From Terriglobia bacterium (GTDB lineage: Bacteria; Acidobacteriota; Terriglobia; Acidiferrales; UBA7541): a stretch of DNA of 64,000 bases. Position numbers and translations under genes: made by a program. This document shows, piece after piece, positions 23,295 to 59,765 of the stretch (the first letter of the stretch is position 1; each line of letters starts with the position of its first letter). Under the pieces are notes generated by a model. The model was not told where the DNA came from and made no database searches. It was given only the letters and a program-made list of their open reading frames with translations. The DNA is taken from contig CAWBGM010000005.1 of NCBI GenBank assembly GCA_963788335.1, forward strand, positions 45,275 to 109,274. Direction: 5' to 3'.

Positions 23295-23662
23295 TGTCTG
23301 CCTTCGCGGTATTGACCGCTGAAAACGAGTCTCGCCGGGCGAGTCCCGGAGAACTTCGCCCAATCCCATTCCGGATTCCTGATTATAAGAAATTCGATTC
23401 GTGGGCCAGCATACAGCCGGGTGGTTCAGAATACAATCTCGCGGCGAAGGCCCGCCACGAAGGCTGTAGCACAGGCACCCGTCGCGGCGAATGCCTCTGC
23501 GACTAAATCGTTGTGACAAATCCGGTCCCAGCGTATGATGCCAAACCGAGAAATCAAAATCAGGCATTACCGATATTCACTCCGTCAATTTAACACTTGC
23601 CGGACAGAGCAATCGAAACGCAATTGATCGACGAAGAGTCATATATCTTGGGAGGAAGTTTC

Positions 23663-25171: not shown

Positions 25172-25224
25172 ACCCGCAACGACCGGCAATACATCATGGC
25201 GTCAAACATGGATTGGAGCGTTTC

Positions 25225-26730: not shown

Positions 26731-26785
26731 TACAGTTGGTGCAAAAAAGAACTGCTCGGACCTCTTACACATGTTGGAGCGTTTC

Positions 26786-28474: not shown

Positions 28475-29695
28475 TCACTGCTTCGCGACAAAAAGAATGC
28501 AACTCGGCTCCGGGACATCCGTGAGAATTTTCCCCGTCGGTGTCAGCATCCCGGTTTTCGGATCAATCGAGAAGACGGCAATGTTCCCGCCATATTCATT
28601 CCCCACAAACATGTATCTATCGGAAGGATCGAGCGCGAAGTTGCGCGGCGTGTCTCCCAGCGACGAAACGTGCTGCACCGGAGTGAGCTTTCCCGTTGCG
28701 GCATCCACGGAAAATATATTAATGGTCCCCGCCGTGTGCGAAGCGCTCAACGTCGCGCCCACGCCGCGGCTCGACGTGTACACGAACCTGCCCGTCCGAT
28801 CCACTTGAATCTCGGAACCCGCGCTCGGCCCGGATTCGCCTTCCGCAACCGGCGCCGTCTGGATTTCTTTGAGCGTGCCTTTTGCTGCATCATATGCAGC
28901 GGTCGTCACTTCCATCGAGCTACTGATCATCGAAACGTATTTCCCATTGGGGTGAAACACCAGGTGGCGCGGCCGCCATCCAATTTCGGGATGCGAAAAT
29001 GGCTCGCCATTCTGTTCCAGAGTCCCGGTCGCGTGATTGATCCGATACACAAATATTTTCCCCAGGCCAATATTGCAGACCAGCAGAAAACGGCCGTCGG
29101 GCGAAAACATGACGCAGTGATTGTGCGGATCGGTCGGGCTTAGTCCATTTTCATCCGGAGCAATCTGGGGACCCGCCGCCGTCCCGTGATGTTCGACGAA
29201 GCCAGCCGCTTCACCCAGCGACCCGTCCGGATGAATCGGAAATGTGGCCACGCTTCCACTGCCGAAATTTGCAGCTGCCAGTATCTTCCCTTCTTTGTCG
29301 ATCGAAAGATGAGCAGGCCCTTTTCCCTTGGTCGAAACTTTATTCAGAAAAGTGAGTTTGCCGGTCGTTCTATCCATCGCATACGCGGTGACGGTATTTC
29401 CCGGATCGGTTTTGCTTGCGTGCTCATTGGCGGCATACAGAAAGCGATGATTCGGGTGCTCGGCGAGCCACGAGGGATTGTTGGCCTCCTGAATCAGCCC
29501 AAGCGGAACCAGGTTTCCGGTTGACGGCGTGAAGCGATATCCATAAATGCCCTTGCTCGCGACGCGCGTGTAGGTTCCGAGATAAACGATGTAGCTCTTC
29601 GCGCCGGAGTCAGCCGCAATTCCAAGTAAGGGGAGAATCCCTGCGGCAGCCAGCACAACAATTGCAACACGTCGAGTTCGCTCGCTCCACATCAT
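28475..29695 (-). CDS. Secreted 7-bladed beta-propeller lactonase family protein (Pgl/YbhE-like)
   Basis: 406-aa ORF with a signal ..VVLAAAGILPLLGIAADS. It then reads YIVYLGTYTR..SKGIYGYRF.., with further strings ..HPNHRFLYAAN.. and ..GKGPAHLSID.., typical of the Lactonase (PF10282-type) family. Its ATG overlaps the stop of the upstream gene (ATGA). Confidence 0.75.
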   Translation of the reverse strand: MMWSERTRRVAIVVLAAAGILPLLGIAADSGAKSYIVYLGTYTRVASKGIYGYRFTPSTGNLVPLGLIQEANNPSWLAEHPNHRFLYAANEHASKTDPGNTVTAYAMDRTTGKLTFLNKVSTKGKGPAHLSIDKEGKILAAANFGSGSVATFPIHPDGSLGEAAGFVEHHGTAAGPQIAPDENGLSPTDPHNHCVMFSPDGRFLLVCNIGLGKIFVYRINHATGTLEQNGEPFSHPEIGWRPRHLVFHPNGKYVSMISSSMEVTTAAYDAAKGTLKEIQTAPVAEGESGPSAGSEIQVDRTGRFVYTSSRGVGATLSASHTAGTINIFSVDAATGKLTPVQHVSSLGDTPRNFALDPSDRYMFVGNEYGGNIAVFSIDPKTGMLTPTGKILTDVPEPSCILFVAKQ

Positions 29696-31857
29696 TCACC
29701 TCGCACGTTGTGGCCGGGCATTTCCGGCATTCTATCAGGCGCACCCGCCGGTTCATTCGCCGCGGGCGCCGCAGGCCCCGATCCCCGCTCGACAACTGTG
29801 GGAGGCGCGGAGTCGATTCCCGTTCCCGTCACGACAATCTGACCGATCATGAAGGAGTGAGGCAGACACGCATAAGAATACGTTCCCGGCCGATTGAATG
29901 TGATCGAGGCCGACTGGCCGCCGCGGAGCATTCCGGTATCCCATCCGCCGCCATCGGCGGAAGACGCGTTGTGAATCTGCTTGCCGTCGTTTGTGAACGT
30001 CACTTTCGTTCCGGCGGGCACCGTGATGCGGCCCGGCGTGAAGGAATAATCGGCGAGTTTCACGGCGTTCGTCGGTACCAGCGGCCCCTCGACTTCAACA
30101 ACCGTCGCCGGCGGTTTCGGCGCTTCAAATGGATGCAACCGGTTGCCGGGCGATCCCCTCAGCGAAAAAACCCACACCATGTCGCCTTTGGCTGAGTTCG
30201 TCTGGATGGAGACGCCGCCGGCGGCGATGGCTACGTATTGAGTGCCATCGATTTCATAGGCGATCGCGGGAGCGTCCGCACCCGCGCCGGTTTGCCATTG
30301 CCACAGCAGTTCTCCGGTCTTGCCGTCGTACGCCTGAAAATTTCCATCCGGCTCGCCGTGGAAGACCAGGCCGCTGGCCGTTGCCAACGCTCCGCTGCCC
30401 TGCCCGACGGAGTAGGGCATTTTTTTCTGCCATACAATTTTGTTCGTGCGGGAATTGATCGCGGTAAATGTACCTGAGTAGTGCGCGCCGATCGGCGGGC
30501 CCAGATTCAATCCGATTCCACGAGTGATTCGAGGTGACGGGCGAATCGCGGCGGTCGCATAAAAATAGCCGGTCTTGGGACTGTACGCCATCGGCGCCCA
30601 ATTCGTTCCGCCGTTTCCGCCCGGCGCGATCAAAATCGGGTGATCGTAAAATGCGGCGAAGATGCATTTCGTCACCCATCCGGCCAGCGGATCGGGACAC
30701 TGCGGCATTAGTGCGTCGCCGCGCGGAATGGGCTGTGTTGGAGAAAATGCAACATGCGGATCCTGCTCGACCGGCTTCTCGTCAATGCCGATCAGTGGCT
30801 TGCCGTTGGTGCGGTCGAGCATATAAATCCATCCCGTCTTGCACGCTTCGGCAATTCCCTTGCGCTTTACTCCGTCGTACGTCTGATCGAAAAGAACGAC
30901 GGGGCTTGGGCAATCGAAGTCCCACATGTCGTGATGCACCACCTGGAAATGCCACGCGTAGGTGCCGTCCAGATGCAGCGCCATGATCGACGAGCTGAAT
31001 AAATTATTTCCGGGGCGATTGTCGGTGGCCCCGCTGGGCAGAACGGGATTGCCTGTGCTGAAATAAATAAGTCCAAGGTCGGGATCGATCGCCGGAGTTT
31101 GCCAGACGCTCGCGCCGCCGTGCAGGTAGGCGCCAGCGCGATTCGGATCGGAGTCTGTCGGCGCGGGCCATGTATCGCCGCCAAGTTCTCCGGGGCCAGC
31201 CGCCGTCCAGAAATGCCACAGTTCTTTCCCAGATTTCCCATCGAGCGCCGTGACCTTGCCGCGCGCGCCCATGTCGCCGCCGGAGACGCCGGTGTACACG
31301 ACGCCGTTGTAGTAGAGCGGCGCGGAAGTGATCGTGTAGCCGTCTTGCCAATTGCCGATGCGCGTTTGCCAGATCAGTTTCCCGGTCTCAGCATCCAGCG
31401 CGACGAATGTGCCGTCGAGATAACCAAGAAAAACTTTTCCTTCGCCGAGCGCGACACCGCGATTGTCCCACCCGCAGCAGACCGTGTTGATCCCCTGATC
31501 GATGTTGGACCGATGCTCCCAGATAATCGCTCCGGTTTTTGCATCGAGCGCGTAAACGTCGTCGTTCCCGCTGGCCAGATACATTACGCCGTCTTTCACC
31601 AGGGGCGTTGCTTCGAGGGAATATTTGCTGCCCAGGCCGGAGCCCAGATGCGTCACCCAAACGCCTTTGAGGTCTTTCACATTGGCGGGAGTGATCTGCT
31701 CCAGCGCAGAATAGCGTGAATTATTCCAGTCGCCGCCGATGGTCGTCCATTCCCTCCCCGCGTCCGGGCGTGAATTCGATTGAGACTGCGCATTCACTCC
31801 GGGGATCAGACCTAAAAAACCAAACGCAACGACAGCTGCCACGTTTTGTGAACGCAT
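29692..31857 (-). CDS. PQQ-dependent (quinoprotein) alcohol-dehydrogenase-family 8-bladed propeller fused to a C-terminal type-1 copper cupredoxin domain
   Basis: 721-aa ORF with the signal MRSQNVAAVVAFGFLGLIPGVNA. Quinoprotein strings are W..GGDWNNSRYS, the vicinal Cys pair NTVCCGW, STGNP and HHDMWDFDC, plus repeated A.D..TG...W W-motifs. The C-terminal part reads TVPAGTKVTFTNDGKQIHN...GTYSYACLPHSFM, giving ligands H, C-x2-H-x2-M. Confidence 0.85.
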   Translation of the reverse strand: MRSQNVAAVVAFGFLGLIPGVNAQSQSNSRPDAGREWTTIGGDWNNSRYSALEQITPANVKDLKGVWVTHLGSGLGSKYSLEATPLVKDGVMYLASGNDDVYALDAKTGAIIWEHRSNIDQGINTVCCGWDNRGVALGEGKVFLGYLDGTFVALDAETGKLIWQTRIGNWQDGYTITSAPLYYNGVVYTGVSGGDMGARGKVTALDGKSGKELWHFWTAAGPGELGGDTWPAPTDSDPNRAGAYLHGGASVWQTPAIDPDLGLIYFSTGNPVLPSGATDNRPGNNLFSSSIMALHLDGTYAWHFQVVHHDMWDFDCPSPVVLFDQTYDGVKRKGIAEACKTGWIYMLDRTNGKPLIGIDEKPVEQDPHVAFSPTQPIPRGDALMPQCPDPLAGWVTKCIFAAFYDHPILIAPGGNGGTNWAPMAYSPKTGYFYATAAIRPSPRITRGIGLNLGPPIGAHYSGTFTAINSRTNKIVWQKKMPYSVGQGSGALATASGLVFHGEPDGNFQAYDGKTGELLWQWQTGAGADAPAIAYEIDGTQYVAIAAGGVSIQTNSAKGDMVWVFSLRGSPGNRLHPFEAPKPPATVVEVEGPLVPTNAVKLADYSFTPGRITVPAGTKVTFTNDGKQIHNASSADGGGWDTGMLRGGQSASITFNRPGTYSYACLPHSFMIGQIVVTGTGIDSAPPTVVERGSGPAAPAANEPAGAPDRMPEMPGHNVRGE

Positions 31858-37246: not shown

Positions 37247-38164
37247 TCAGCAAGCTTGAATTCGGTTTCGCAGCATTCCAATCCCTTCAACTTCGGCTTC
37301 CACTACATCGCCGTCATTCAGATACTCAGGCGGGGTCCGGCCAAGACCGACGCCTTCGGGCGTACCCGTCGCGATGATGTCCCCCGGTTCAATCGTCATT
37401 CCCTTCGACAGCCACTCGATGATGGTGTCCACGGGAAAAATCATGTCGGCTGTCGTCGCGTTCTGCCTTTGCTCGCCATTGACGCGCAAGGATATGCGCT
37501 TCGCCTGCGGGTCGCCGAACTCGTCTGCCGTGACAATCGCGGGGCCCATGGGACAGAAGCCATCGAGGCTTTTTCCCTTGAACCACTGCAGGTGGGCAAA
37601 TTGCACGTCGCGCGCGGAGACGTCATTGATGATTGTGTAGCCAAAAATATGACGGGGTGCCTCCGATCGGGGAATATTTATTCCACCGACACCGATAATC
37701 ACGCCAAGCTCGGCCTCGTAGTCCACCTGCTGAGTCACCTGGGGATCCCATGGGACCGGATCGAATGGACCGTTCACCGAAGTGGGAGACTTGGTGAAGA
37801 ATACGGGAACCTGGGGAATTCTGGCTTCCCGGCCTCGAGCTGCGGACGACTCCTTCAAGTGGGCCATGTAATTCAGCCCGAGACAAAAAATGTTCTTCGT
37901 CGACCTGGGGATTGGGGCACACCACCGTATCGAGTCGAGCGCGCGGGTCGCACCGGTGGGCTTGGAGGCCAGAGATTCGGCGGCCAAATCCCGCATCCGT
38001 TTCCAGCAATCCGGTCCCGCTTGAATCAATTCGAGAAGTGATGACGGAAAGGCCGCAGGCCATTTGCCGGCCGCGGCAATTTCCAAATCGATCGCGCACT
38101 CCTCCGAGATGGCGCCAATGCGCGGCCTGGCCGAATCGCGTTCGCAAAACGTGATATATTTCAT
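37247..38164 (-). CDS. Fumarylacetoacetate hydrolase (FAH) family protein
   Basis: 305-aa ORF with no signal peptide. FAH-family strings are IFCLGLNYMAHLKE, YEAELGVIIG, GYTIINDVSARD, KGKSLDGFCPMGP and GDIIATGTPEGVG. Confidence 0.85.
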   Translation of the reverse strand: MKYITFCERDSARPRIGAISEECAIDLEIAAAGKWPAAFPSSLLELIQAGPDCWKRMRDLAAESLASKPTGATRALDSIRWCAPIPRSTKNIFCLGLNYMAHLKESSAARGREARIPQVPVFFTKSPTSVNGPFDPVPWDPQVTQQVDYEAELGVIIGVGGINIPRSEAPRHIFGYTIINDVSARDVQFAHLQWFKGKSLDGFCPMGPAIVTADEFGDPQAKRISLRVNGEQRQNATTADMIFPVDTIIEWLSKGMTIEPGDIIATGTPEGVGLGRTPPEYLNDGDVVEAEVEGIGMLRNRIQAC

Positions 38165-38575
38165 TTTCTATAATTCTCCCCATCGAAATCGCGGCTACAG
38201 TAGCGCAGCCATGGGAGGATTACAATGGCGGCCGGGACTCTTGATTTTCTGGAGCTGCGACGGATTCCAATGCCAAAATAGATTTGACTTCGCATGTCGG
38301 CATTTGTAAAAATCACAATAAGAAACCTGTGTACAAGCAGCTAAAGCAAGCAGTTAAAGATTGTGAGCTTCCCGATCCCTGAAAGCTGCCGAAGGGCGAG
38401 CGATCATCGCCCGACTGGACCATCGAGCGGAAAAACCGGCGCTTACGTCGATTTTTCGATACCGATGAATCGTTTTTGTGAGCGCACGCGTTTAATGATT
38501 GGGCTTTCGAGCGAGCATGAGATTGTTCCAGGAAGTTCTGAAAGCTCGATCTGGCAAACGCGAGGAGATTTTGAG

Positions 38576-39520
38576 ATGAGATTTCGACGCCCCTGCTACC
38601 TGGCGCTTCTGTTTGCGATTGTCGCGGCCTCGCCGCTCTTGCACGCGCAGACCCCACAGGGCCCTCCTCCCCCGCCGAAACCCAGCGTTACCGCGAATTT
38701 GCCCTTTGACCCTCATGATTTGAATGGGAACTGGATCGGTGACAATCAGGACTCCGCTCATGGGAGAAGGAATTGGGGCAGCTACGACCAGAGGATTCCC
38801 GAACCGCCTTTGACGGATTGGGCCAAGCAGCACTTGTTGATGAAATCGATTTCACACGATCCAATTTATGGAAAGCCTCTGCCCTTTCGTCCCGAGCATT
38901 ACCGTATCGCTCCCTGCCCATACAATCAGGACCCTTGCTACTCCACGGACCCGAACGGCGTCCCCGCCAATGTTCCCGATGGCGAGTATCCCGGCAAGGA
39001 TTGCGAACCGATGGCCGCGCCCGCGATGTACGACTACCCAAGCCTTGGGTTGCTTACATTTTTTGAGTCGCCGGAACGAATTGTCCAGTTGAACAATTAT
39101 CACCGCGAGTGGCGGATCTTCTGGATGAACCGCGAGCATCCGAAGGAAATGGACCCCACGTTCGAGGGGGACTCCACAGCGAAGTGGGAGGGAAACACGC
39201 TGGTCGTGGATACGGTCGGCTTCAATGGCAGGACACAGATCACTCAGAACCTGGGCCAGTGGAAGAGCGATGCATTCCACCTTGTGGAGCGCTACACGCG
39301 AGTGGATCACGATCACCTGGTGCTGGACATGACATATTCCGATCCGAAAGCGTGGGGCGACGCCTCCTGGCCGGGGTTCGTAAGGTATTACCATCAGGTT
39401 TCTCCCGAGAAGCTTCATGACAATACGTACCAGTACGACCAATATACGGAGTGGATCTGCAGCCCCGAGGACAACAAGAATTTCGACCAGAGAGTCACCG
39501 ATCGTTATCAGAAAAAATAA
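38576..39520 (+). CDS. Secreted protein, unnamed family 'X' (tandem copy A)
   Basis: Start at ATG 38576 after GAGGAG, with the signal MRFRRPCYLALLFAIVAASPLLHA. Shared motifs are ANLPFDPHDLNGNW, PEPPLTDWAKQ, YPGKDCEP, REWRIFWMNREHPKEMDPTFEGDS, WEGNTLVVDTVGFNGRT, SDAFHLVERYTRVDHD, DPKAWGD and TEWICSPEDNKNFD. Confidence 0.75.
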   Translation: MRFRRPCYLALLFAIVAASPLLHAQTPQGPPPPPKPSVTANLPFDPHDLNGNWIGDNQDSAHGRRNWGSYDQRIPEPPLTDWAKQHLLMKSISHDPIYGKPLPFRPEHYRIAPCPYNQDPCYSTDPNGVPANVPDGEYPGKDCEPMAAPAMYDYPSLGLLTFFESPERIVQLNNYHREWRIFWMNREHPKEMDPTFEGDSTAKWEGNTLVVDTVGFNGRTQITQNLGQWKSDAFHLVERYTRVDHDHLVLDMTYSDPKAWGDASWPGFVRYYHQVSPEKLHDNTYQYDQYTEWICSPEDNKNFDQRVTDRYQKK

Positions 39521-39547
39521 GTGGAAACGACCAAAGGAAGGTATGCG

Positions 39548-39949
39548 ATGAGATTGCTGAAACGTGGCGGCCTGTTCGTTGAATGGATTGTTCTCGTGTT
39601 GATTGCAACGCCTGTCTTCGCCCATCATGGCTATGCGGCGTACGACATGACGACCACACTCTCCGTGAAAGCGACGATCGTGAGTATTGTGATGGAAAAC
39701 CCCCACTCGACCATTTCCTTCGACGTAAAGGACGACAAAGGGAATATCCAACACTGGTTTTCAGAAAGCGGTAATCCGCGGAACATGAGGCAAGATGGCT
39801 ACACCCAGGACAACCTGAAGCCGGGCGACGAGGTGACGGTGTACTACCACCCGTCCAGGAACGGCGAACACGTGGTCGTTTTGACAAAGGTTGAATTTCC
39901 CGACGGCCATTCGCTGCCCAAGAAACATACCGACGATAGCGCACAGTGA
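39548..39949 (+). CDS. Small secreted DUF6152-like protein (mature N-terminus His-His)
   Basis: ATG 39548 lies 6 nt after AAGGAAGG. The signal MRLLKRGGLFVEWIVLVLIATPVFA is followed by HHGYAAYD. The strings ..NPHSTISFDV.D..G... and GDEVTVYYHPSRNG match my memory of DUF6152 proteins (AHHS..FD...NPH...). Confidence 0.6.
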   Translation: MRLLKRGGLFVEWIVLVLIATPVFAHHGYAAYDMTTTLSVKATIVSIVMENPHSTISFDVKDDKGNIQHWFSESGNPRNMRQDGYTQDNLKPGDEVTVYYHPSRNGEHVVVLTKVEFPDGHSLPKKHTDDSAQ

Positions 39950-39980
39950 TTTGCAGATTTAAACGGGCCGGACAGGATCA

Positions 39981-40934
39981 TTGAGAAATTTTAAATTGCG
40001 AACGCGCGTTGCGGGTTCGATATTTGCATTGGCAACGGTGCTGTTGTCCGCGCCGCACCCGTCCGGTTTCGCGCAGAGCCAGCCAGCCTCCCCGTACATC
40101 GACAAGACCGGTCCGAGGCCGGCGGGAACTGCGAATCTCCCTTTTGATCCTCACGACTTCACGGGAGACTGGTACGGGGACCGTGTCCCCCGAAACAGCC
40201 GTTGGGCGAATAAAACTCCCGAACCTCCCTTGACCGAATGGGCCAAGGAACACCTGCTTTACAAATCGATCTCGCATGACGTTCTGGCCGGCACGCTCAG
40301 AGACCCCAAGAACCCTCCCAACGAAAGTCTCGACGACTCAGCACGGGCCTTCTACTCGACGGACCTCTACGGCGTGATCGCCAACGACCCATTCGGGATG
40401 TATCCGGGCAAGGACTGTGAACCCCATGCCGCGCCCGCAATGTATGACGTTCCCTATCTGGGTGTGCTGACGTTTTTTATGTCGCCGGAGCGAATCGTTC
40501 AACTGAACAATCATCAACGCGAATGGCGGATCTTCTGGCTCAACCAGAATCACCCGAAGGAAATGGACCCGACATTCGAAGGCGACTCGGTTGCTCATTG
40601 GGAGGGCAACACGCTGGTTGTGGATACGATCGGGTATAACGGGCGGAGCATGATCACCGGCGTCGTGGGCCACTCCATGAGCGATGCGTTCCGTCTCGTC
40701 GAGCGTTATACGCGCGTGGATCATGACAACCTGACGATCGATATGACGTACTACGATCCGAAGGCCTGGGGCGACAAAGCATGGACCGGATTTCATCGAT
40801 ATTACCGCCTTGTTCCCATCCAACAGGTTCGCGATCTGAACTATAAGTCCGACTCGTTCACCGAATGGATTTGCAGCCCCGAAGACAATCTAAAATTCGA
40901 TCAGAAGTTGATCGAGCGATATAAGAAGCAATGA
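39981..40934 (+). CDS. Secreted protein, unnamed family 'X' (tandem copy B)
   Basis: TTG start in the track, with the signal MRNFKLRTRVAGSIFALATVLLSAP. It has the same motif set, including ANLPFDPHDFTGDW, REWRIFWLNQNHPKEMDPTFEGDS and WEGNTLVVDTIGYNGRS. Confidence 0.7.
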   Translation: MRNFKLRTRVAGSIFALATVLLSAPHPSGFAQSQPASPYIDKTGPRPAGTANLPFDPHDFTGDWYGDRVPRNSRWANKTPEPPLTEWAKEHLLYKSISHDVLAGTLRDPKNPPNESLDDSARAFYSTDLYGVIANDPFGMYPGKDCEPHAAPAMYDVPYLGVLTFFMSPERIVQLNNHQREWRIFWLNQNHPKEMDPTFEGDSVAHWEGNTLVVDTIGYNGRSMITGVVGHSMSDAFRLVERYTRVDHDNLTIDMTYYDPKAWGDKAWTGFHRYYRLVPIQQVRDLNYKSDSFTEWICSPEDNLKFDQKLIERYKKQ

Positions 40935-40987
40935 ACGCCGCCGTTCGAGCGACAGGCGGAGTTCTTGCCGGAGAGCTGAAGATCGCC

Positions 40988-41914
40988 ATGCGAAAGCACT
41001 TTACAGGTTCAACCCTTGCGCTGACCGTCGTGGCGCTGCTGGCCTCGTCTTTCCCGCTTTTCGCGCAGGGCGCGCCTCAAAAGGTTCCAAAAACCTCCGA
41101 CGCCGCGAACTCATCCTTCGATCCGCACGACCTGTCGGGAGACTGGATCGGCGAAAACACCGCTGAAAACAGCCGTTGGGCGAATCGGACTCCGGAACCT
41201 CCCTTGACCGAATGGGGCAAGCAGCATTTGCTTTATAAATCGATCACGCACGATGCGTTGTCCGGCACATTGCGCGATCCGGAGAAACCGCCCAACGATA
41301 ACGGCAGCATAAGCGGCGGCGACAGAAACTTCTACGCGGCCGATCCGAACGGCGTCCCGGCCAACGACCCGGCGGGCATGTATCCGGGCAAGAATTGCGA
41401 ACCGCTGGCCGCCCCGGCCATGTTCGACATTCCTTTTTTGACATTATTGACTATCTTCGAAACAAAAGAGCAGATTTACTTGCTGAATAATTTTCAACGC
41501 GAATGGCGAATCTTCTGGCTCAATCGAGAACACCCGAAAGACATCGATCCGACGTTCGAGGGAGATTCGGTCGGCCACTGGGAAGGAAACACACTGGTCG
41601 TGGATACGATCGGATTTAACGGCAGGACCGCGATCAGTGGCGAAGTGGGCCACGCCAAGAGCGATGCCTTCCATCTTGTCGAGCGTTTCACGCGCGTCGA
41701 TCATGACGACCTGATGATCGATATGACGTATGCCGATCCGAAAGCGTGGGGCGATAAAGTCTGGACTGGATTTCACAAACATTACAAGTATGTGCCGATC
41801 GAAAAAGTTCACGATATGACTTACAAGTCCGACTACTTTACCGAATGGATCTGCAGTCCCCAGGACAACAAGGCTTTCGATCAGAGGGTAACCGATCTGG
41901 CCACGAAGCATTGA
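40988..41914 (+). CDS. Secreted protein, unnamed family 'X' (tandem copy C)
   Basis: Start moved to ATG 40988 (MRKHFTGSTLALTVVALLASSFPLFA). It has the same motif set, including SSFDPHDLSGDW, YPGKNCEP, REWRIFWLNREHPKDIDPTFEGDS and WEGNTLVVDTIGFNGRT. Confidence 0.75.
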   Translation: MRKHFTGSTLALTVVALLASSFPLFAQGAPQKVPKTSDAANSSFDPHDLSGDWIGENTAENSRWANRTPEPPLTEWGKQHLLYKSITHDALSGTLRDPEKPPNDNGSISGGDRNFYAADPNGVPANDPAGMYPGKNCEPLAAPAMFDIPFLTLLTIFETKEQIYLLNNFQREWRIFWLNREHPKDIDPTFEGDSVGHWEGNTLVVDTIGFNGRTAISGEVGHAKSDAFHLVERFTRVDHDDLMIDMTYADPKAWGDKVWTGFHKHYKYVPIEKVHDMTYKSDYFTEWICSPQDNKAFDQRVTDLATKH

Positions 41915-41958
41915 AAGGCTTCCCTTCGGGGACAAATTTGTATAGATTTTAATCTCAA

Positions 41959-42882
41959 ATGCGAAAACAATTTACAGCTTCAATCATTGCAATGGCGATA
42001 GCGCTGGTCTTTGAGCCTTTTCTCCCGGCATTCGCGCAGACCGCTGCCCAGACTGCTCCAAGGCCCTCTGCGACCGCGAATCTTCCTTTCGATCCGCACG
42101 ATCTGTCAGGCGATTGGACCGGCGAAAAAAGTAAACGAAACAACCGCTGGGCCAACAAGACGCCGGAACCACCCCTGACGGACTGGGCGAAGCAGAATTT
42201 GCTCTACAAATCGCTCTCTCACGACTCCTACTCCGGCACTCTGCGGGATCCCAAGATCACTCCCAATGACGCGGTGCCCGACGACGCACGGTCCTTCTTC
42301 GCAACAGACCTGTATGGCGTCCCGGTCAACGATCCGAACGGCATGTATCCGGGCAAGGATTGCGAGCCGATGTCCACACCGGCGATGTACGACGTACCCT
42401 ATTTAGGCTTGCTGACGTTCTTCATCACTCCGGATGCGATCTATGAGTTGAACAATCACCACCGCGAATGGCGCATTTTTTGGCTGAACCGGGAACACCC
42501 CAAGGAGATGGACCCCACGTTTGAGGGTGACTCGATCGCTCATTGGGAAGGCAACACGCTGGTCGTGGATACCACCGGCTATAACGGTAGAACAATGGTA
42601 AGTGGAGCCGTGAGCCACTCGAAGAGCGACGCGTTCCACATGGTCGAGCGATTCACACGCACAGATCACGACACAATTCAGATCGATATGACGCTATCCG
42701 ATCCGAAAGCGTGGGGCGACAAGTCCTGGCCTGGATTCCACAAGTATTACCACCTGGTACCCATAGAAAAAGTTCATGACCTGGTTTACAAGTCCGATTA
42801 CTTTACCGAATGGATCTGCAGCCCGGAAGACAACAAAAACTTCGACAAGAAGGTCATCGAGCTTCAACAGAAGCAAAAATAA
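41959..42882 (+). CDS. Secreted protein, unnamed family 'X' (tandem copy D)
   Basis: 307-aa ORF with the signal MRKQFTASIIAMAIALVFEPFLPAFA. It has the same motif set. Confidence 0.75.
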   Translation: MRKQFTASIIAMAIALVFEPFLPAFAQTAAQTAPRPSATANLPFDPHDLSGDWTGEKSKRNNRWANKTPEPPLTDWAKQNLLYKSLSHDSYSGTLRDPKITPNDAVPDDARSFFATDLYGVPVNDPNGMYPGKDCEPMSTPAMYDVPYLGLLTFFITPDAIYELNNHHREWRIFWLNREHPKEMDPTFEGDSIAHWEGNTLVVDTTGYNGRTMVSGAVSHSKSDAFHMVERFTRTDHDTIQIDMTLSDPKAWGDKSWPGFHKYYHLVPIEKVHDLVYKSDYFTEWICSPEDNKNFDKKVIELQQKQK

Positions 42883-42918
42883 AGGCTCAAGATTTGCGGC
42901 CGACCATATCTTCGTTGC

Positions 42919-44106
42919 TCAGAGGCGAAGCAACCTGGCCGCGTTTTCACCCAGGATCGCTCTCTGATCGGCGGCGTTTAATCCTGAACTCAGCACGAAA
43001 TCGGCTTCGCGGTCTTCGCCCCAGAGCGGTTGCTGAACGTATTCATTCCCTGCCGCGTCGCGCTGCGATCGATCGTTCGCGGATACCGGCTCATTCACGG
43101 CCGCCGGGAAATCGGTGCCAAAGACAACATGATTGGCGCCGACTTCCGCGACCAGATGCCTCAAATTCTCCGCGGTGAACACGACCGAGTCCACGTAGAT
43201 CTGTTCCTTGAAATAATCACCGGGCAATTTCTTGATCGGCCTGCAGCTCGTCGGAATCTTTTCCGCGCAGTGATTCGAGCGTCCCAGGTAGGACGGCAGA
43301 TACCCGCCGCCGTGCGCCGCGACAATTTTTACTCCGGGATAGCGGTCCAGTGTTCCGTCAAAGATCAGGTGAGAGAGAGCGACGGTCGTCTCCAGCGGAT
43401 TGCCGATCACATTTCCCAGGCTGCCATTCCCCTGAAAACGTTTCTCGCCTTCTTCGAAACCGACGGGATGAGTGAATATCACGATTCCTAATTCCTCGGC
43501 TTTGGCCCAGAACGGATCGAATTTGCGCGCGGACAGCTCTTCTCCATTCACGCTCCCACCGATTACAAATCCCCGGAAATTATATTTCTTCACGCCTTCG
43601 TCCATCTGCTCAACCGCAAGGTCGGGATGTTGTATCGAGACCGCACCCAAGCCGACAAAACGGTCCGGGTGAGCGGTACACAAATCGGCGAGCTGCTCAT
43701 TCTGGCGTTGGGCAAGGCGGCCGGCCAGGTCACGGTCCGCCCAGTAGTTGTAGCCGGAAAACAGGCTCACCGCCTGTACATCAATTCCGCGTTCATCCAT
43801 GCTCTGCAAACGATCCGCGATCTTGGCCGGCTCCAGCATGGTGAAACGCCGCTTGGGATTGAGGAACCCGGAGTCTTCTTTGGTATTTTGCTCATACCCT
43901 TTCAACAGATCGCGGATGTCGGGGAAACAGTGACAGTGGAAGTCGACTGTCTTCAGGCGGCGTCCGCCTACGGAAATCTCGCGGCGTTTCATCGAAGCTG
44001 CGGTCTGCGTGGGATTGGCAGCCGCATTCATCAGCCCTGAGCCGCCCAGTAAAGCTCCGGCCATGGCGCCCGCCACGTTCCTAAGGAATTCTCTGCGATC
44101 GGACAT
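42919..44106 (-). CDS. TAT-exported amidohydrolase-2 family (ACMSD-like metal-dependent hydrolase/decarboxylase) protein
   Basis: Start moved to ATG 44106, giving the twin-arginine signal MSDRREFLRNVAGAMAGALLGG. Other features are VDFHCHCFPD (HxH metal motif), AHGGGYLPSY and FGTDFP. Confidence 0.8.
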   Translation of the reverse strand: MSDRREFLRNVAGAMAGALLGGSGLMNAAANPTQTAASMKRREISVGGRRLKTVDFHCHCFPDIRDLLKGYEQNTKEDSGFLNPKRRFTMLEPAKIADRLQSMDERGIDVQAVSLFSGYNYWADRDLAGRLAQRQNEQLADLCTAHPDRFVGLGAVSIQHPDLAVEQMDEGVKKYNFRGFVIGGSVNGEELSARKFDPFWAKAEELGIVIFTHPVGFEEGEKRFQGNGSLGNVIGNPLETTVALSHLIFDGTLDRYPGVKIVAAHGGGYLPSYLGRSNHCAEKIPTSCRPIKKLPGDYFKEQIYVDSVVFTAENLRHLVAEVGANHVVFGTDFPAAVNEPVSANDRSQRDAAGNEYVQQPLWGEDREADFVLSSGLNAADQRAILGENAARLLRL

Positions 44107-44280
44107 TCCGAGCCTCCATGAGAAACTCCAGACACATGACAATCACAAACCGATGGAAAACAAAATAAGACGGTGGCCGGAGTTCTTGAGGAGTCCCAAT
44201 CGATCTACTCCAGGATTCCTCTAATTGACGTCATTTCACACCCGCTCATTATTCAAGTCAAGCCTTCTTCGGATAGTCCT

Positions 44281-44397: not shown

Positions 44398-44868
44398 CTA
44401 CTTTCCGCCGTTGGCCCACTTGGCCATGGCCTGCCAGTCCGGATCGTCTTTGGTTTCAAACTGCCGACCGCCGCTGTGTTCTACGGTCAAGTCGCCGCCA
44501 GCCAGTGGCGAGAGCGGGCGAAGAAGCAATTTGCTGTTCATCGGGTCGTCGCCGTTGACGAGTTTTGAAACATTCTCGAAAATCTGACGGGATTGCTCCT
44601 CGGTCCACGTCTTGCTCCCGGTCGAAAGCGGCACCAGGTATTGAGGACCATTTCCCGACCCGTGGCACGAGTAGCACCGTGCATGGCCCGGCCGGTCCTT
44701 CAGAAAAATGGGCTCGATGCGCGCCTTGAAAACTTCATAATCAAGATTCGGCGCTGCTTTGGCCGGCGCTTGCCTTGCGGGCGCGCCGCTCGACAGGGCT
44801 GCGCTGAACACAATTCCCGCAAAAACAAAAAGAGCGGCAACTTGTCTGGCATAAAGTCTGGATATCAC
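44398..44868 (-). CDS. Small secreted CXXCH protein (c-type cytochrome-like, Planctomycete-cytochrome-C-like motif)
   Basis: 156-aa ORF with a signal ..FVFAGIVFSAALSSGA. The string IEPIFLKDRPGHARCYSCHG places CYSCH at 44662..44676. A later string is LLLRPLSPLAGGDLTVEHSGG. Confidence 0.6.
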   Translation of the reverse strand: MISRLYARQVAALFVFAGIVFSAALSSGAPARQAPAKAAPNLDYEVFKARIEPIFLKDRPGHARCYSCHGSGNGPQYLVPLSTGSKTWTEEQSRQIFENVSKLVNGDDPMNSKLLLRPLSPLAGGDLTVEHSGGRQFETKDDPDWQAMAKWANGGK

Positions 44869-44942: not shown

Positions 44943-45998
44943 TCAATGCACCGCTACCGCAGCCATCCGTCCCGCTTCTTCCCCGACCGGGATGCGCGTC
45001 GTGATCTTTAAGGTTGTTGTATCGACAACCGACACAGACCTGTCCGCAGCGTTTGAAATGTAGGCCATCTTGCCGTCGGGAGTAAACGTGATCCAGTTCG
45101 GCGAGCCGGAAATCGGATCGTGTCCCGGCGGCATGAGCGCAGGCGTATGGACACGTCCCACATACTTAAGATCGGGAAGTGAATAAATAAACGCAGCATT
45201 GTATGCCTTGCAGTTCACCCAGATACTTTTGCCGTCGGGAGAGATTGTCAAACCATGTCCCGACTGTGAGGTCCCAACAATGGGCTCGTCATCCGGAAGC
45301 GTAACTCTTGCAACTTCCTGGTGGGTCGCAAAATCCAGCACAGCGAATCCGCGCAGGCGCGCCACTTGCACATACACCCGGCGGGCTGAACCATCAGGAT
45401 TGGAATCGAGTTGGACGACCTGCGTTCCAGCCTCGAATTTATGATCCCAGGCAATCGTCTGTGACTGAAGATCGAACACCTCGATGAAACCCGCGCCCTC
45501 CGTCGTGGCGATTGCGAACTTGCTGTCAGGCGTCACAACCACGTCGTGCAGTTTCACCTTGCTGGGGATGCTTTTCACCAGTTGCAGCGTGGCCGCATCG
45601 ATGATGTCCAGCGCGCCGGGAGTTTCAGTGTTGCAGACCAATATCCATTTCCCGTCCCTGGTCACAGCAACATCGGCCGCATGACCGCTGACCGGCACTT
45701 CCTTGATCTTCTTTCCCGACTTCCGGTCCACCACCGTGAGAATCTTTTCGGTAAACTGCGTGATGTAAACACGCTTCCCGTCCGGAGAAATCGCGACTGA
45801 CTCGGGCACCTGAATGTCTTTGATCTCCTGCACGACTTTGTTCTTCCCCGTGTCAATGACAGACACCGTGGTTCCAGCCGTGTTCGCCACGTAAATGCGC
45901 GTCGAACCCGCCGCCAGGGGCATGGTGAGGAGTAAACAGGAAATCCCCAGATGTGTAGTCCTGGATATACATCGCTTGCTAAGAATATTTAATTTCAT
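44943..45998 (-). CDS. Secreted YVTN-family beta-propeller repeat protein
   Basis: Start moved to ATG 45998 (MKLNILSKRCISRTTHLGISCLLLTMPLAAG). It has repeated units such as YVANTAGTTVSVIDTGKNKVV, ISPDGKRVYIT, VTRDGKWILV, VTPDSKFAIAT and ISPDGKSIWV. Confidence 0.75.
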   Translation of the reverse strand: MKLNILSKRCISRTTHLGISCLLLTMPLAAGSTRIYVANTAGTTVSVIDTGKNKVVQEIKDIQVPESVAISPDGKRVYITQFTEKILTVVDRKSGKKIKEVPVSGHAADVAVTRDGKWILVCNTETPGALDIIDAATLQLVKSIPSKVKLHDVVVTPDSKFAIATTEGAGFIEVFDLQSQTIAWDHKFEAGTQVVQLDSNPDGSARRVYVQVARLRGFAVLDFATHQEVARVTLPDDEPIVGTSQSGHGLTISPDGKSIWVNCKAYNAAFIYSLPDLKYVGRVHTPALMPPGHDPISGSPNWITFTPDGKMAYISNAADRSVSVVDTTTLKITTRIPVGEEAGRMAAVAVH

Positions 45999-46613
45999 AT
46001 GGCTGGAATCGCTCCTTATCTGCCGGTGCGGAGATTGCAAACTCCGCAGTCTTACTGTCAAGTGAATAGACACGTTTCCATTCAGACGTCCAAATAAATT
46101 TTCCTTCAGAGTAAACTAAACCACCCGCCCATAACAATAGTTTACTCCACGTAGCCTCTCTGGAAGACGACAAATTACGCCTCCGGGCGGTAGTAAAGGG
46201 CGTAGAACACAGTGTCAGGGCGGTGCGCCTGATAAGCAAGGACCGTTCGGAACGGCCCGCACGCCGCCGGAAACCGGCCGTAGCGGCTATAGACGTATTC
46301 ACAATACGCGATCGTCGGTCGAAACTACGGGCTTGGGCTCAATCTCATCGCGAATCATGCGGATTCTCCCTTTACCGTATTCGGAACGCCGACCAATACC
46401 CCGCGCACAGGGGCGAGGCAAACCATGGGAAATTGTACCAAGACTCATCCAGGAGTTATCTTCTGTCGTATTTAAGTTTGCATCTTTGCCCCGGATGAAC
46501 TGGCTCCCTATCCGTACACCTGCATGTGGGCTTGCATTGAACGAAATAGTTGTGTTTTGATAACTGGGCATCGCGAGCCTTTGTTCTGACGCGGGCCCCC
46601 GGAGAGACAATTT

Positions 46614-49224: not shown

Positions 49225-50091
49225 CTACTGGCTCTCGTTCGGTCCCGCCCGCCCCATCACCGTGCGCATCTGCATCGGCCAAAGCGGCTGGCAAGGTGAT
49301 GGATCCCATTTCGAGCCGTCCTGCTCGCGCTTGAACTCGCTACTCTGGTAGAACTTTTCCGTCAGGAATGCCGGATCGTCCACAATCGATTTCAATATCA
49401 GATAATCCGTGCCGTTATAATTGATCATCCGAAAGCGTTCGTTCAGCACCGTATTCCCGCTGTACGGAATTCCGTTTTTCTCCAGATATCCAGGCTTCAT
49501 ATGCGTGGTAACCACATGAAGGTTGCCGCCCTTGCCCGGTTCCGGTCCTCCAAACGGATAACTGGTCGGTCGCCTTTGCGCGAGCTTCTCCCAGGTGGCG
49601 ACGGAATCTCCCTGCAACTGGGGTTGGCCGCCTTTCCACTTCGATCCATCAAAATGGAAGAGCCGCTTCTGCGTCCCCGCGTCGATCTCCACTTGCAGCG
49701 TATTGTCGTCCACCCAGGTGATGTGCAGGCGTTCCGGCAAACGCATGACATTGCCGGCGCCGTAGGCCCTGCACTCGTTCCCTTCCTTCTTGTCTTTCTC
49801 CGGATCCCAGGCTTTCGTAAGTTTCTTGCCCTCGGCATTCAGCGGGACATCCGTGTAATCTCCCTTGGCGGGCGTAACCATCCGCCACATCCAATCTTCA
49901 TCGACAATGGAGACCCAGTATCCCGTCACATCAATAAGAGCAGCGTCCTTCGGTGATAAAGAAGGCGCTCCCTTCGCAGCGCCCTGCTGTTGCGCGCGGG
50001 TCTGGCCGGGAACGCCTAGCAGGAAAAACAAAATACCGAAAGCGGCGCGAATTTTCCCAATTTGAATCATCGTTGCGAGTCTTCTCCGCAT
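49225..50091 (-). CDS. Secreted protein, distant member of unnamed family 'X'
   Basis: 288-aa ORF. Its ATG at 50091 directly abuts the upstream stop (TAAATG), and the signal is ..AAFGILFFLLGVPGQTRA. The architecture is IDVTGYW.., ..GNECRAYG.., LQGDSVATWE..NLHVVTTHMKPGYLEKNGIPYS....ERF......L.L.S.VDDPAFLTE. Confidence 0.65.
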   Translation of the reverse strand: MRRRLATMIQIGKIRAAFGILFFLLGVPGQTRAQQQGAAKGAPSLSPKDAALIDVTGYWVSIVDEDWMWRMVTPAKGDYTDVPLNAEGKKLTKAWDPEKDKKEGNECRAYGAGNVMRLPERLHITWVDDNTLQVEIDAGTQKRLFHFDGSKWKGGQPQLQGDSVATWEKLAQRRPTSYPFGGPEPGKGGNLHVVTTHMKPGYLEKNGIPYSGNTVLNERFRMINYNGTDYLILKSIVDDPAFLTEKFYQSSEFKREQDGSKWDPSPCQPLWPMQMRTVMGRAGPNESQ

Positions 50092-51114
50092 TTATTTTGT
50101 TGCCGGTTGCGGCGCGCCCTTCATGATGTCGTGATAAACAGCCTCGGTGAATTTGAGTCCGCTTTCGGCGCCGTAAACGCCGTCGTAATCCAATGTCGGC
50201 TTCGCCGCCTTCACCTGTTCGAACGTCATTCCGTTCCTCACCATCTTCTCAATCCGGCTGCGAACGATGGTCACCATGTCCCGATAGTTGACGACATCGG
50301 CGCGGTCGGAAAGATGTCCGTGTCCGGGAATCACATACGTGCCGCCCTCCTCGCCATATTCCGGCACGAGCAGCACGATCAGGTCGTTCAATGCGTCGAG
50401 ATAGCCATCGATGGTCCCGCCGTTCTCCCTGTCAATTACAGGAAAACTTGTCGTCGAAAACAGTTCGCCGGCGCTCAACACATCCGACCCGCGAAACAAA
50501 ACCACCGAGTCGCCTTCGGTATGCGCCCGCCCCATGTTGTACCAGATCACCGGCTCATTGTTGTAAAGCTTGAATCCTTCTTTCCCAAAAGTGATGGAGG
50601 AATTTTTTCCCGTCTGGTCCTCGGTCCGTCCCGAAACGCTCAGGCTGGTCACAATCGTGGTTCCGGTCAGCAGTTTCAAGCGGCTGCGATCCTTTTCTTC
50701 CTCGCGGGCAAACCCTCGAGTCGCGTTCGGTAACGCCCATCCCGCGCGGAAAAGTATCGTGTTCCCTCCGGTATGGTCCGCGTCGGAAGTCGTGTTTCCG
50801 AGAAACATAATCGGAAGCGTCGTCAGGTTCCGGATTGTCGTGACAACCTCGTCCGCAAACTGAGGCAATCCCGAATCGACAACGATGACATATTCCTTGC
50901 CCACCTCGACGGTAATATTGCAACCCGCGCCGGCCAGCATGTACACGTTGCCGCGCACGTGGAGCACATGGATATTCTTCGTGCCCGCCGTCTTCACTTC
51001 CTCCAGGCCGCGCTGCCCGGCCAACGCCACTCCCGCGGTGGCGATCACAATCGTGGCGGCCAGCGCCATTCGCAAAGCCAAACGAGACGCCCGGCTCAAC
51101 CAGCGAGGATTCAT
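50092..51114 (-). CDS. Secreted MBL-fold protein with degenerate metal motif (TSDADH in place of HxHxDH)
   Basis: 340-aa ORF. Its ATG overlaps the upstream stop (ATGA at 51111-51114), and the signal is ..LAATIVIATAGVALA. The MBL topology is VYMLAGAG.NITVEVGKEYVIVVDSG, FLGNTTSDADHTGGN, RAHTEGDS and IPGHGH. Confidence 0.7.
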   Translation of the reverse strand: MNPRWLSRASRLALRMALAATIVIATAGVALAGQRGLEEVKTAGTKNIHVLHVRGNVYMLAGAGCNITVEVGKEYVIVVDSGLPQFADEVVTTIRNLTTLPIMFLGNTTSDADHTGGNTILFRAGWALPNATRGFAREEEKDRSRLKLLTGTTIVTSLSVSGRTEDQTGKNSSITFGKEGFKLYNNEPVIWYNMGRAHTEGDSVVLFRGSDVLSAGELFSTTSFPVIDRENGGTIDGYLDALNDLIVLLVPEYGEEGGTYVIPGHGHLSDRADVVNYRDMVTIVRSRIEKMVRNGMTFEQVKAAKPTLDYDGVYGAESGLKFTEAVYHDIMKGAPQPATK

Positions 51115-52025
51115 CGTCCGTGCTCCGCGGCATAAGTCCCCAGTTTTTCCGGCGGGGGCAATGTCGCCAGTTTCTTCTGATACTCGGGATACATGGTCTC
51201 CGCTCCGCCGCGCGTCGCTTCAAACGGGATGCCTGTTCTTTCCGAAAACTCATGAATCCACGGATTCTCTCCCGGCAAATGGAATGCCACCCATCCTTTT
51301 GGATGATCGATCTCCACACTCGAAATGCAGAAATTCGGCGAGAGCTGACGCGCGATGTCGAGGGTCCAGTCCGTCGTCCAAACCACGGGCTCGGTCAAAT
51401 AAACCGGGTCGTCAATAATGCTGACCAGCGTCAACTCGTTCTCGTCGCGAAACAAATATTCGGTCATCGTCGCTTTTTCGCTGCGCGCCACACCATTGCG
51501 CCGAAAATAACCCTCTTTCAGATGAGTGGTCGTAATCTTCAACATATCGCCAACCCACTCGCCAGTTGAAAATCCCTGCCAGGTATGAGGCCACCATTCC
51601 GGCGGGTGCGGACGTCCATCCATGTAAATCGTCCGCTCGGGAAGCATGTACTCGATGATCGTGTGGTAGGCAAGAATTCCCTGCGTCAGCGGATCGACGT
51701 CGGTCCAGATGCGCATCTGCGATGGCCCGCGTGGCGCATACTCGGCCGGATGCGCGTGGCACAAATGCTCGACCATCACCCATTGTTCCGCATCCCACGT
51801 GTCGCCCCGCATCCGCGTCGCATCGTTGATGGGCAGGCTCAGGTAATTCGCGATGGCGATGTCCCCACGGATCGGCGAATCTTCCTGGCCCAGCTGAGCC
51901 CACTCGCCCGTCAAATCGACTTGAGCGTGTGCCGGGATGGCTGTAAGAGCTACGAAGAATCCGAGCGTGGCGAGCAGACAATCCACTCGACGGCCGAAAT
52001 ACTTTGGGCAATTCATAAAGCGCAT
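51111..52025 (-). CDS. Secreted protein, distant member of unnamed family 'X'
   Basis: 304-aa ORF with the signal ..LLATLGFFVALTAIPAHA. The strings VDLTGEW.., ..EHLCHAHPAEY.. and RTIYMDGRPHPPE...WQGFSTGEWVGDMLKITTTHLKEGYFRRNG...S....EY........L.L.SIIDDPVYLTEP give the same architecture as 49225 and 38576. Confidence 0.65.
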   Translation of the reverse strand: MRFMNCPKYFGRRVDCLLATLGFFVALTAIPAHAQVDLTGEWAQLGQEDSPIRGDIAIANYLSLPINDATRMRGDTWDAEQWVMVEHLCHAHPAEYAPRGPSQMRIWTDVDPLTQGILAYHTIIEYMLPERTIYMDGRPHPPEWWPHTWQGFSTGEWVGDMLKITTTHLKEGYFRRNGVARSEKATMTEYLFRDENELTLVSIIDDPVYLTEPVVWTTDWTLDIARQLSPNFCISSVEIDHPKGWVAFHLPGENPWIHEFSERTGIPFEATRGGAETMYPEYQKKLATLPPPEKLGTYAAEHGR

Positions 52026-59746: not shown

Positions 59747-59765
59747 GGAACTCTCCTTCAAACCA

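Follow-up and report, generated by a model that had tools for sequence, protein, structure and literature searches.

CusF and CcmE are periplasmic cofactor chaperones built on an oligonucleotide/oligosaccharide-binding (OB)-fold, and CopC and YcnI bind copper through a processed N-terminal histidine, a feature that is the hallmark of several copper and nickel sites. Together with the barrels of the FABP/lipocalin type and the zinc metallohydrolases related to SoxH, these are the described systems that come closest to a group of genes from a Terriglobia bacterium that is examined here. The genes lie in a stretch of 64,000 nucleotides (GenBank assembly GCA_963788335.1, contig CAWBGM010000005.1, positions 45,275 to 109,274 of the forward strand) that was analyzed as a whole and is referred to as the window, position 1 being its first letter (Table 1). 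They encode six members, A to F, of a protein family, here called FAM, that is real, undescribed, and very large, and that has a loosely familiar fold class. Four of them (A–D) are arranged around a gene of the family DUF6152, while the other two (E and F) flank a gene for a protein with a metallo-β-lactamase (MBL) fold. We propose, with a probability of about 0.35, that FAM proteins are periplasmic ligand-binding or specificity subunits that act in a complex and hand their cargo to DUF6152 or to a hydrolase.

Extent and Conservation of the FAM Family

A first-pass annotation of the window, made from the sequence alone, was unable to place the tandem proteins in any characterized family, and database searches agree with it. 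Neither the window proteins and their canonical relatives, searched singly, nor the family profiles A2 and A5 had a sequence match in Pfam-A, NCBIfam, or the PDB. The six window proteins gave no Pfam match even at E ≤ 1, ten relatives gave none at E ≤ 0.01 except to the partner domains of two fusion proteins, and the source names of the homologs are all "hypothetical protein." No search linked FAM with confidence to any functionally characterized family, an outcome that the annotation had named as refuting it, and the one structural likeness, to FABP-type barrels, is marginal (Foldseek E 4e-3, TM-score ~0.5). A HMMER scan of 1.84 billion representatives of 50%-identity clusters returned 7,290 matching clusters at E ≤ 1e-3 and 2,182 at E ≤ 1e-10, and a database of 90%-identity clusters gave 1,500 matches with E-values down to 1e-213. 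The similarity might be thought an artefact of chance open reading frames (ORFs), low-complexity sequence, or mis-called genes, but the thousands of homologs with E-values in this range, a confident structure model, synteny that is kept in two phyla, and identical gene order on independent contigs refute this explanation, the likelihood of which we put at practically nil.

The typical family member has 260–290 residues, and the family consensus is DlsGvW..pp.tpwa..C.P.G.P..R.i..dGR.hP..G.S.G.WeGdTLVVdt.Gfn..G.phS..ER.rR.d..DP...E..C. In the subfamily to which A–D belong, the insert that follows the first strand is longer by about 40 residues. Genome loci of the subfamily were collected with the patterns PEPPLT[DE]W[AG] and AWGD[KA]xW[PT]G, which gave 61 loci, all from Acidobacteriota, mainly Candidatus Acidiferrales, Terriglobales, and Acidobacteriaceae but with two from Vicinamibacteria, and single metagenome-assembled genomes (MAGs) hold at least 11–13 FAM loci. 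The wider superfamily is also found in cultured Sphingomonadales of the genera Novosphingobium, Sphingobium, and Croceibacterium. FAM is a sizeable part of the uncharacterized exported proteome of the Acidobacteria, a highly abundant soil phylum.

Residues D48, G51, W53, R172, G190, S192, W196, E230, and P249 are invariant across phyla together with a pair of cysteines. Of 225 single-domain members, 214 have the complete pair, seven retain a single cysteine (the other being substituted in two and falling at an alignment gap in five), and three have neither; the pair plausibly forms a disulfide. By manual reading, each of A–D begins with a basic stretch, to which a hydrophobic core and then an A-x-A-like site preceding a Gln are joined, and this supports export to the periplasm. 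As the host is diderm, export means the periplasm and not necessarily secretion, so that the earlier description of these proteins as secreted holds for their signal-peptide-like N-termini and is too specific with regard to their destination.

Copies A–D are 59–68% identical to one another in global alignments, and together with the ORFs and the N-termini this bears out the description of the genes as four same-strand paralogs with signal peptides. Of eight motif blocks said to be shared by the four, seven match by regular expression, five of them in all four copies; block 1 fails in copy C (ANSSFDPHD) and block 2 in copy A (IPEPPLT). Block 4 as it had been written occurs in none of the copies, the true spacing being N-x2-HPK and not N-x3-HPK. 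There are exactly two cysteines in B, C, and D, and copy A has two more (C114 and C121). Copy A keeps the ancestral set of four, and B, C, and D have lost the extra pair together. C114 and C121 (C-x6-C) are located in the insert after the first strand, the putative lid considered below, and are kept by most of the subfamily.

Members E and F are related to each other at E 4e-15 and are barely detectable by BLASTP with copy D (E 0.003). A family profile built from 100 distant FAM representatives, none of them from the window, was compared with the 335 window ORFs and matched A–D at ~1e-70 to 1e-76, E at 1.7e-13, and F at 6.1e-18, with no other match. As the profile picks out exactly these six ORFs, the earlier count of six family members in 64 kb is correct.

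Predicted Fold of the FAM Proteins

Copy D was modeled with AlphaFold2 from an alignment of 56 sequences, and the model has a predicted local distance difference test (pLDDT) score of 85.9 and a predicted template modeling (pTM) score of 0.79. In the model a short first strand (residues 51–55) bears the invariant G-x-W (G51 and W53) and is followed by an insert of about 95 residues (56–150), mostly non-regular yet confidently modeled, by eight long antiparallel strands (151–266), and by two C-terminal helices. The 50 best PDB fold matches found with Foldseek are without exception small ligand-binding barrels, almost all FABP/CRABP, with E-values of 3.8e-3 to 2e-2, TM-scores relative to the target of 0.42–0.54, and root-mean-square deviations of 4–6 Å over about 125 of the 307 residues. 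A Foldseek search of BFVD gave nothing meaningful, and an avidin-family match at E 0.13 merely echoes the barrel class. Because the PDB matches are marginal, the FABP/lipocalin-like up-and-down β-barrel predicted for the FAM core is taken as a lead and not as a membership.

The likeness to FABP/lipocalin proteins consists of the predicted up-and-down antiparallel barrel, the G-x-W (D-x-x-G-x-W) on its first strand, and the appearance of FAM as a small, soluble, and non-enzymatic protein. The first-strand motif, which served as a test for calycins, is present and is invariant both in the subfamily and across phyla, and R172 and R231 are also conserved. FAM differs from these barrels in being two to three times longer, with an insertion of 55–95 residues after strand 1, a C-terminal helix, and the Cys pair. 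It also has no relationship to them at the sequence level, is exported, and has DUF6152 or MBL partners that are encoded beside it or in the same polypeptide.

Association of FAM with DUF6152

In the first-pass annotation the DUF6152 gene was taken to interrupt the FAM array, but the comparison of loci argues for the opposite, namely that DUF6152 is a conserved partner around which the array was built. Adjacency was computed in the 61 acidobacterial loci, where a DUF6152 gene within 400 bp of a FAM gene was counted as near, and was compared with 1,000 random placements inside the same loci. A DUF6152 gene is near FAM in 39 of the 61 loci, and 56 of the 60 DUF6152 ORFs abut FAM, versus a mean of 16.9 and a maximum of 27 for the random placements. 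DUF6152 usually lies upstream of FAM on the same strand (42 cases). Among metagenome loci of the broad family (alignment A5), 35 of 80 carry DUF6152, which almost always abuts FAM. The partnership extends to cultured sphingomonads, with the order DUF6152-DUF6152-FAM-TonB receptor-MarR in Croceibacterium atlanticum (the first four being WP_053833713.1, WP_046903031.1, WP_053833712.1, and WP_046905303.1). In Sphingobium the order is FAM-DUF6152-FAM-DUF6152, and a pair of DUF6644 genes and a TonB receptor gene adjoin it. In Novosphingobium humi two DUF6644 genes are followed divergently by GH39-like-FAM-DUF6152-TetR. The presence of DUF6152-FAM in these three cultured genera makes its function directly testable.

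The two domains are also found in single polypeptides, since three DUF6152-FAM fusion proteins (P0214, P0468, and P0258) are each encoded on several independent contigs. With the adjacency statistics and the fusion proteins taken together, co-occurrence of FAM with DUF6152 and MBL genes is stronger than had been proposed. Moreover, the fusions of FAM to DUF6152 and to MBL, along with the translational coupling of neighboring genes, suggest a physical association. Fusions of one FAM domain to another are common as well. They make up 14 of the 19 long proteins (≥340 residues) among the top 150 representatives, and there are dozens of further FAM-FAM matches of 510–540 residues (P0133, P0137, P0140, and P0159 are examples), some of them from Bryobacteraceae. 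These common fusions and the tandem duplication that gave B, C, and D suggest that single-domain FAM proteins may work as homo- or heterodimers with diversified specificity.

DUF6152 and DUF6644

The gene between A and B belongs to DUF6152 (PF19649), which it matches with 82.9 bits against a cut-off of 27 (E 1.8e-23, profile positions 2–94 of 98), and an identical protein (P0269) is encoded on other contigs with the same flanking genes. Its AlphaFold2 model (pLDDT 84.4) is an OB-fold, the best matches being SSB, PriB, and the N-domain of LysRS at E ~2e-3. The signal peptide ends in a conserved Ala that is followed by an invariant His-His. This A-HH junction is invariant in 50 acidobacterial and eight further sequences, with Ala at −1 and a small or aliphatic residue at −3 of the predicted cleavage site. 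From Acidobacteriota to Alphaproteobacteria the invariant positions are the A-HH junction, D33, P52-H53, and W70, and the further conserved pattern after the His-His consists of (Y/F)D, N/x-P-H, W, and three Gly. By analogy with known sites, the His-His and the conserved Asp and Pro-His may form a metal or cofactor site.

DUF6152 resembles the first proteins of the CopC/CopD and YcnI/YcnJ pairs in that it is small and exported, has a conserved His at its predicted mature N-terminus, and is encoded beside a small polytopic membrane protein, in this case DUF6644. Its predicted OB-fold also recalls CusF and CcmE. In contrast, CopC and YcnI have Ig/cupredoxin-like folds, the Met, His, and Trp ligands of CusF are absent from DUF6152, and neither DUF6152 nor DUF6644 has sequence similarity to CopC/CopD, YcnI/YcnJ, CusF, or CcmE. 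Because the predicted fold is an OB-fold and not Ig/cupredoxin-like, DUF6152 is not filed here with the His-brace or N-terminal-His copper proteins, which serve as an analogy only. We found no paper that mentions DUF6152 or DUF6644; DUF2214 appears in the literature solely in lists and "Acidiferrales" solely in MAG announcements. New for DUF6152 are the prediction of an OB-fold, an invariant His-His at the predicted mature N-terminus, and the genomic links with FAM and DUF6644. Such a His-His on an OB-fold is a concrete and testable feature.

DUF6152 directly followed by DUF6644 occurs without FAM in Paracoccus denitrificans PD1222 (locus L156, plasmid 1, 311088–311948; WP_011751034.1 and WP_011751035.1) and Sinorhizobium meliloti (L157), and in Cupriavidus, Azospirillum, and Phyllobacterium (further loci of this kind are L158, L159, and L161). 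The core of the system appears to be this pair of genes, and its presence in PD1222 and S. meliloti makes the function directly testable there also. DUF6644 is found in about 19 of about 150 FAM loci as well, including an acidobacterial one with the order DUF6644-DUF6644-DUF6152-FAM-FAM (L038). Hence three families of unknown function, FAM, DUF6152, and DUF6644, are tied into one genomic network by adjacency and fusions. The possibility that DUF6644 is a member of CopD was considered and is unsupported, the sole further match of note being a weak one to DUF2214.

The F-MBL-E Module

A feature that is absent from the first-pass annotation is that the divergent members E and F flank the MBL gene with start/stop overlaps. 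Orthologs of F that are 53–59% identical are present in five other loci (L009, L023, L044, L046, and L047), and all five adjoin an MBL gene. In four of the five the order is that of the window with a gap of at most 6 bp or an overlap, and L047 has the complete F-MBL-E order. A protein in which MBL and FAM are fused (P0196) is also encoded on several independent contigs.

The best matches of the window MBL, all of them sub-threshold, are to the SoxH-related zinc metallohydrolases of the "quinoprotein relay system" (TIGR04558/TIGR04559) and to class B β-lactamases. It scores 59.8 bits with NCBIfam SoxH_rel_PQQ_2 (E 2.8e-16) against a cut-off of 280 and 18.0 bits with Pfam Lactamase_B (E 0.003) against a cut-off of 22.7, and by BLAST it groups with canonical MBLs. 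The likeness to these hydrolases extends to the MBL domain of P0196, which matches them too, to the export of the window MBL, and to the presence of a pyrroloquinoline quinone (PQQ) dehydrogenase in the window. The differences are that the window MBL is far below the family cut-offs and that the metal-binding motif HxHxDH is replaced, with TSDADH in its place. Other F-adjacent MBLs with a readable motif likewise have the first two His replaced (TTIDEDH and TSADEDH), and the variant shared by the F-linked MBLs reads T-x-x-D-x-D-H or T-x-D-x-D-H. TSSDPDH and HSDSDH are found in related MBLs from other parts of the F loci and HSDADH in the fusion P0196, and the canonical HxHxDH is kept in the four remaining MBL-domain proteins of the window. 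The F-linked motif looks like a conserved variant metal site and not like a one-off degenerate copy. The MBLs with variant motifs that were compared include those at L047:1561–2580 and L009:12957–14135.

The coupling of FAM to a hydrolase gene raises the question of whether FAM proteins act in the periplasm to inhibit or chaperone exported metallo-hydrolases. There is precedent in AprI and Inh, calycin-type inhibitors of serralysins that are encoded beside their target enzyme, and the predicted barrel fold class of FAM is the same. The F-MBL-E operon is translationally coupled and conserved, and amidohydrolase and MBL genes are enriched beside FAM. However, a covalent fusion such as P0196 would be surprising in an inhibitor, the partner of most FAM genes is DUF6152 and not a hydrolase, AprI and Inh structures are absent from the top 50 fold matches, and DUF6644 and the FAM-FAM fusions would be left unexplained. 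We consider such a role very unlikely.

The four canonical MBL-domain proteins of the window (11168–12676, 23597–25171, 25168–26730, and 26771–28015, all on the plus strand) have 414–524 residues, and three of them are encoded in tandem. In each an unannotated N-terminal region of about 290 residues precedes the MBL domain.

Proposed Function

In the mechanism that we favor, FAM would be a barrel with an N-terminal D-x-x-G-x-W strand and a "lid" of 55–95 residues, which a probable disulfide would tie to the C-terminal tail, and it would confer specificity by binding a ligand in a complex with a partner protein. In one module (A-DUF6152-B-C-D) FAM would pair with the OB-fold protein DUF6152 and its putative metal or cofactor site. 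As DUF6152 is coupled to the inner-membrane protein DUF6644 in other lineages, a chain is suggested in which cargo would pass from FAM to DUF6152 and on to the membrane, where DUF6644 would be the recipient in those lineages. In the second module (F-MBL-E) the two divergent FAM proteins would present or hold the substrate of the variant MBL hydrolase. Candidates for the cargo are a metal, a metallophore, heme, and a hydrophobic organic compound. If metals or cofactors are transported, this would be a new route for their handling in the periplasm, and if organic substrates are bound, the system would bear on how Acidobacteria capture carbon compounds.

A bolder form of this proposal is that DUF6152, FAM, and DUF6644 make up an unrecognized system for trafficking from the periplasm to the inner membrane that extends from Acidobacteriota to Alpha- and Betaproteobacteria. 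The His-His of the OB-fold would bind a metal or metallo-cofactor, and the FAM barrels, dozens per acidobacterial genome, would be interchangeable cargo or specificity subunits that were also recruited by a variant metallo-hydrolase. We regard this extended form as doubtful.

Several results weigh against a role of FAM as a ligand-binding partner of DUF6152. No DUF6152 gene is near FAM in 22 of the 61 loci, and FAM therefore does not strictly need it. A comparison of 95 DUF6152-adjacent FAM sequences with 67 others revealed no sharp position that separates them, the residue differences being small and confounded by phylogeny. The window has no DUF6644 gene, and there are no PDB matches to copy D at E ≤ 1e-3 in Foldseek. 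FAM has no conserved His or Cys ligands beyond the Cys pair. The neighbors of acidobacterial FAM genes show no enrichment of TonB-type outer-membrane proteins (5 of 43, versus a background of 24%), and so an uptake pathway is suggested by the two sphingomonad loci alone. The analysis shows family membership and size, export signals, gene linkage, and fusions; ligand binding, the metal site, the direction of the hand-off, and the marginal fold class are inferred, and the invariant polar residues D48, R172, S192, and E230 could equally be catalytic.

The last of these points leads to the alternative that the FAM proteins are themselves periplasmic enzymes on a barrel (hydrolases, isomerases, or cyclases), whose paralogs span a range of substrates, with DUF6152 and MBL as other steps of a pathway and not as physical partners. 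Some lipocalin-like proteins are indeed enzymes built on the barrel. The polar residues D48, R172, S192, E197, and E230-R231 are invariant across phyla, exported hydrolases and oxidoreductases abound in the neighborhoods (Amidohydro_1/2, MBL, DLH, PTE, PQQ dehydrogenase, and propeller-cytochrome c), and the copy number noted above for single MAGs is typical of catabolic families. Nonetheless, FAM has no sequence similarity to any enzyme family, and the folds nearest to it belong to binding proteins that are not catalytic. Conservation is strongest at positions that are mostly Gly, Trp, Pro, and Cys and hence structural, and the fusions to DUF6152 and MBL and the translational coupling point to physical association. 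An enzymatic role is in our view unlikely, and we retain the binding subunit as the preferred reading, with some probability left for explanations beyond those discussed here.

Neighboring Genes

Other neighbors were assessed as genes that directly abut FAM/DUF6152 blocks, against the same background of 24%. As the acidobacterial genomes are related, these counts are inflated by shared synteny. Proteins of about 700 residues with CarboxypepD_reg, CXXCH, and propeller elements abut the blocks in 18 of 36 cases, multiheme-like cytochromes c in 11 of 15, MBLs in 10 of 20, and the Amidohydro_2 cluster that includes the gene convergent on copy D in 8 of 14 cases in other genomes. The cluster of the propeller protein upstream of F is present in 24 loci, where 9 of 32 genes directly abut the blocks.

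With the CXXCH propeller proteins and the cytochromes c as the most enriched immediate neighbors, a redox or cofactor accessory function has to be weighed. DUF6152 would hold copper or heme at its His-His and FAM a porphyrin- or quinone-like cofactor, both serving the neighboring c-type cytochromes and propeller dehydrogenases, and DUF6644 would be the membrane acceptor of electrons or cofactor. Nitrobindin-type barrels and the OB-fold CcmE bind heme, and CXXCH proteins are encoded in the window (a propeller protein and a small one), as is a fusion of a PQQ dehydrogenase with a cupredoxin. Against this, neither FAM nor DUF6152 has a heme-binding motif, DUF6644 has one clearly conserved His per subunit (in six seed sequences), the proteobacterial DUF6152-DUF6644 pairs are not beside cytochromes, and the enrichment, measured in acidobacterial genomes that are related, may in part stem from their common synteny. 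Such a function thus appears distinctly improbable.

The 700-residue neighbor reads as a signal peptide followed by CarboxypepD_reg, CXXCH, and propeller-like repeats. That it might be a TonB-type outer-membrane barrel was also considered and is rejected, as it has no similarity to the TonB-dependent transporter-like protein of the window. Exported proteins with CarboxypepD_reg, a CXXCH heme-c motif, and propeller-like repeats are encoded in the window at 12852–14618 (+), 52254–53891 (−), 57470–59917 (−), and 59769–62090 (−), and in another locus at L001:8985–11093. They are one family or two related ones, the shorter form being Vgb_lyase-like and the 700-residue form having no Pfam match past the N-terminal domain.

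The Array and Its Surroundings in the Window

The arrangement of the genes is given in Table 1. All five genes of the array are on the plus strand, and because the gaps between them are only 0–44 bp, A-DUF6152-B-C-D is likely a single operon. The start of copy C overlaps the stop of copy B by 4 bp, and other gene callers give copy C 326–327 residues. A scan of 38000–43100 for promoters and terminators gave sites that are no more numerous than in shuffled sequence. The Rfam scan of the whole window found no family, and therefore offers no riboswitch clue to a ligand.

TABLE 1. Coordinates and properties of the FAM genes and their neighbors in the window.
Feature	Position	Strand	Size, match and remarks
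FAM copy A	38576–39520	+	314 aa; family profile E 3.6e-72; exported barrel protein (predicted)
DUF6152 gene	39548–39949 (ORF opens at GTG 39521)	+	133 aa from ATG, 142 aa from GTG; Pfam match
FAM copy B	39981–40934	+	317 aa, TTG start; family profile E 2.2e-70
FAM copy C	40931–41914	+	327 aa; alternative ATG 40988 gives 308 aa; family profile E 2.6e-76
FAM copy D	41959–42882	+	307 aa; copy used for the structure model
Amidohydrolase_2 protein, twin-arginine-like leader	42919–44142	−	Pfam E 3.3e-39; convergent on copy D; recurs beside the A-DUF6152 pair
FAM divergent member E	49225–50091	−	288 aa; family profile E 1.7e-13; directly downstream of the MBL gene
MBL-fold protein, exported	50092–51114	−	TSDADH motif; sub-threshold NCBIfam/Pfam scores
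FAM divergent member F	51111–52025	−	304 aa; family profile E 6.1e-18; stop overlaps MBL start by 4 bp
CarboxypepD_reg + CXXCH + Vgb_lyase-like propeller protein	52254–53891	−	Pfam; recurrent neighbor, not assigned to the module

The history of the array can be followed in related loci. Orthologs of copy A that are 77% identical occur in three of them (L012–L014), in the order of two DUF6644-like genes, A, and DUF6152, after which comes an Amidohydro_2 gene in convergent orientation. Copies B, C, and D are mutual closest relatives and have one common homolog, 67–70% identical, which lies outside any tandem array in L007. The comparison indicates that B-C-D is a lineage-specific triplication that was inserted between the DUF6152 and amidohydrolase genes.

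Other parts of the window have features of their own. Two overlapping tandem paralogs of about 900 residues each (1820–4546 and 4543–7236, +) recur in four other loci, and the gene at 29692–31857 (−) encodes a PQQ-dependent dehydrogenase propeller that is fused to a C-terminal plastocyanin/azurin-like cupredoxin domain. Closer to the array, a small exported protein that has a CYSCH motif and matches no family (44398–44868, −) adjoins a YVTN/cytochrome-d1-like β-propeller (44943–46073, −). This pair, the SoxH-like MBL, and the PQQ dehydrogenase recall the components of the NCBIfam "quinoprotein relay system."

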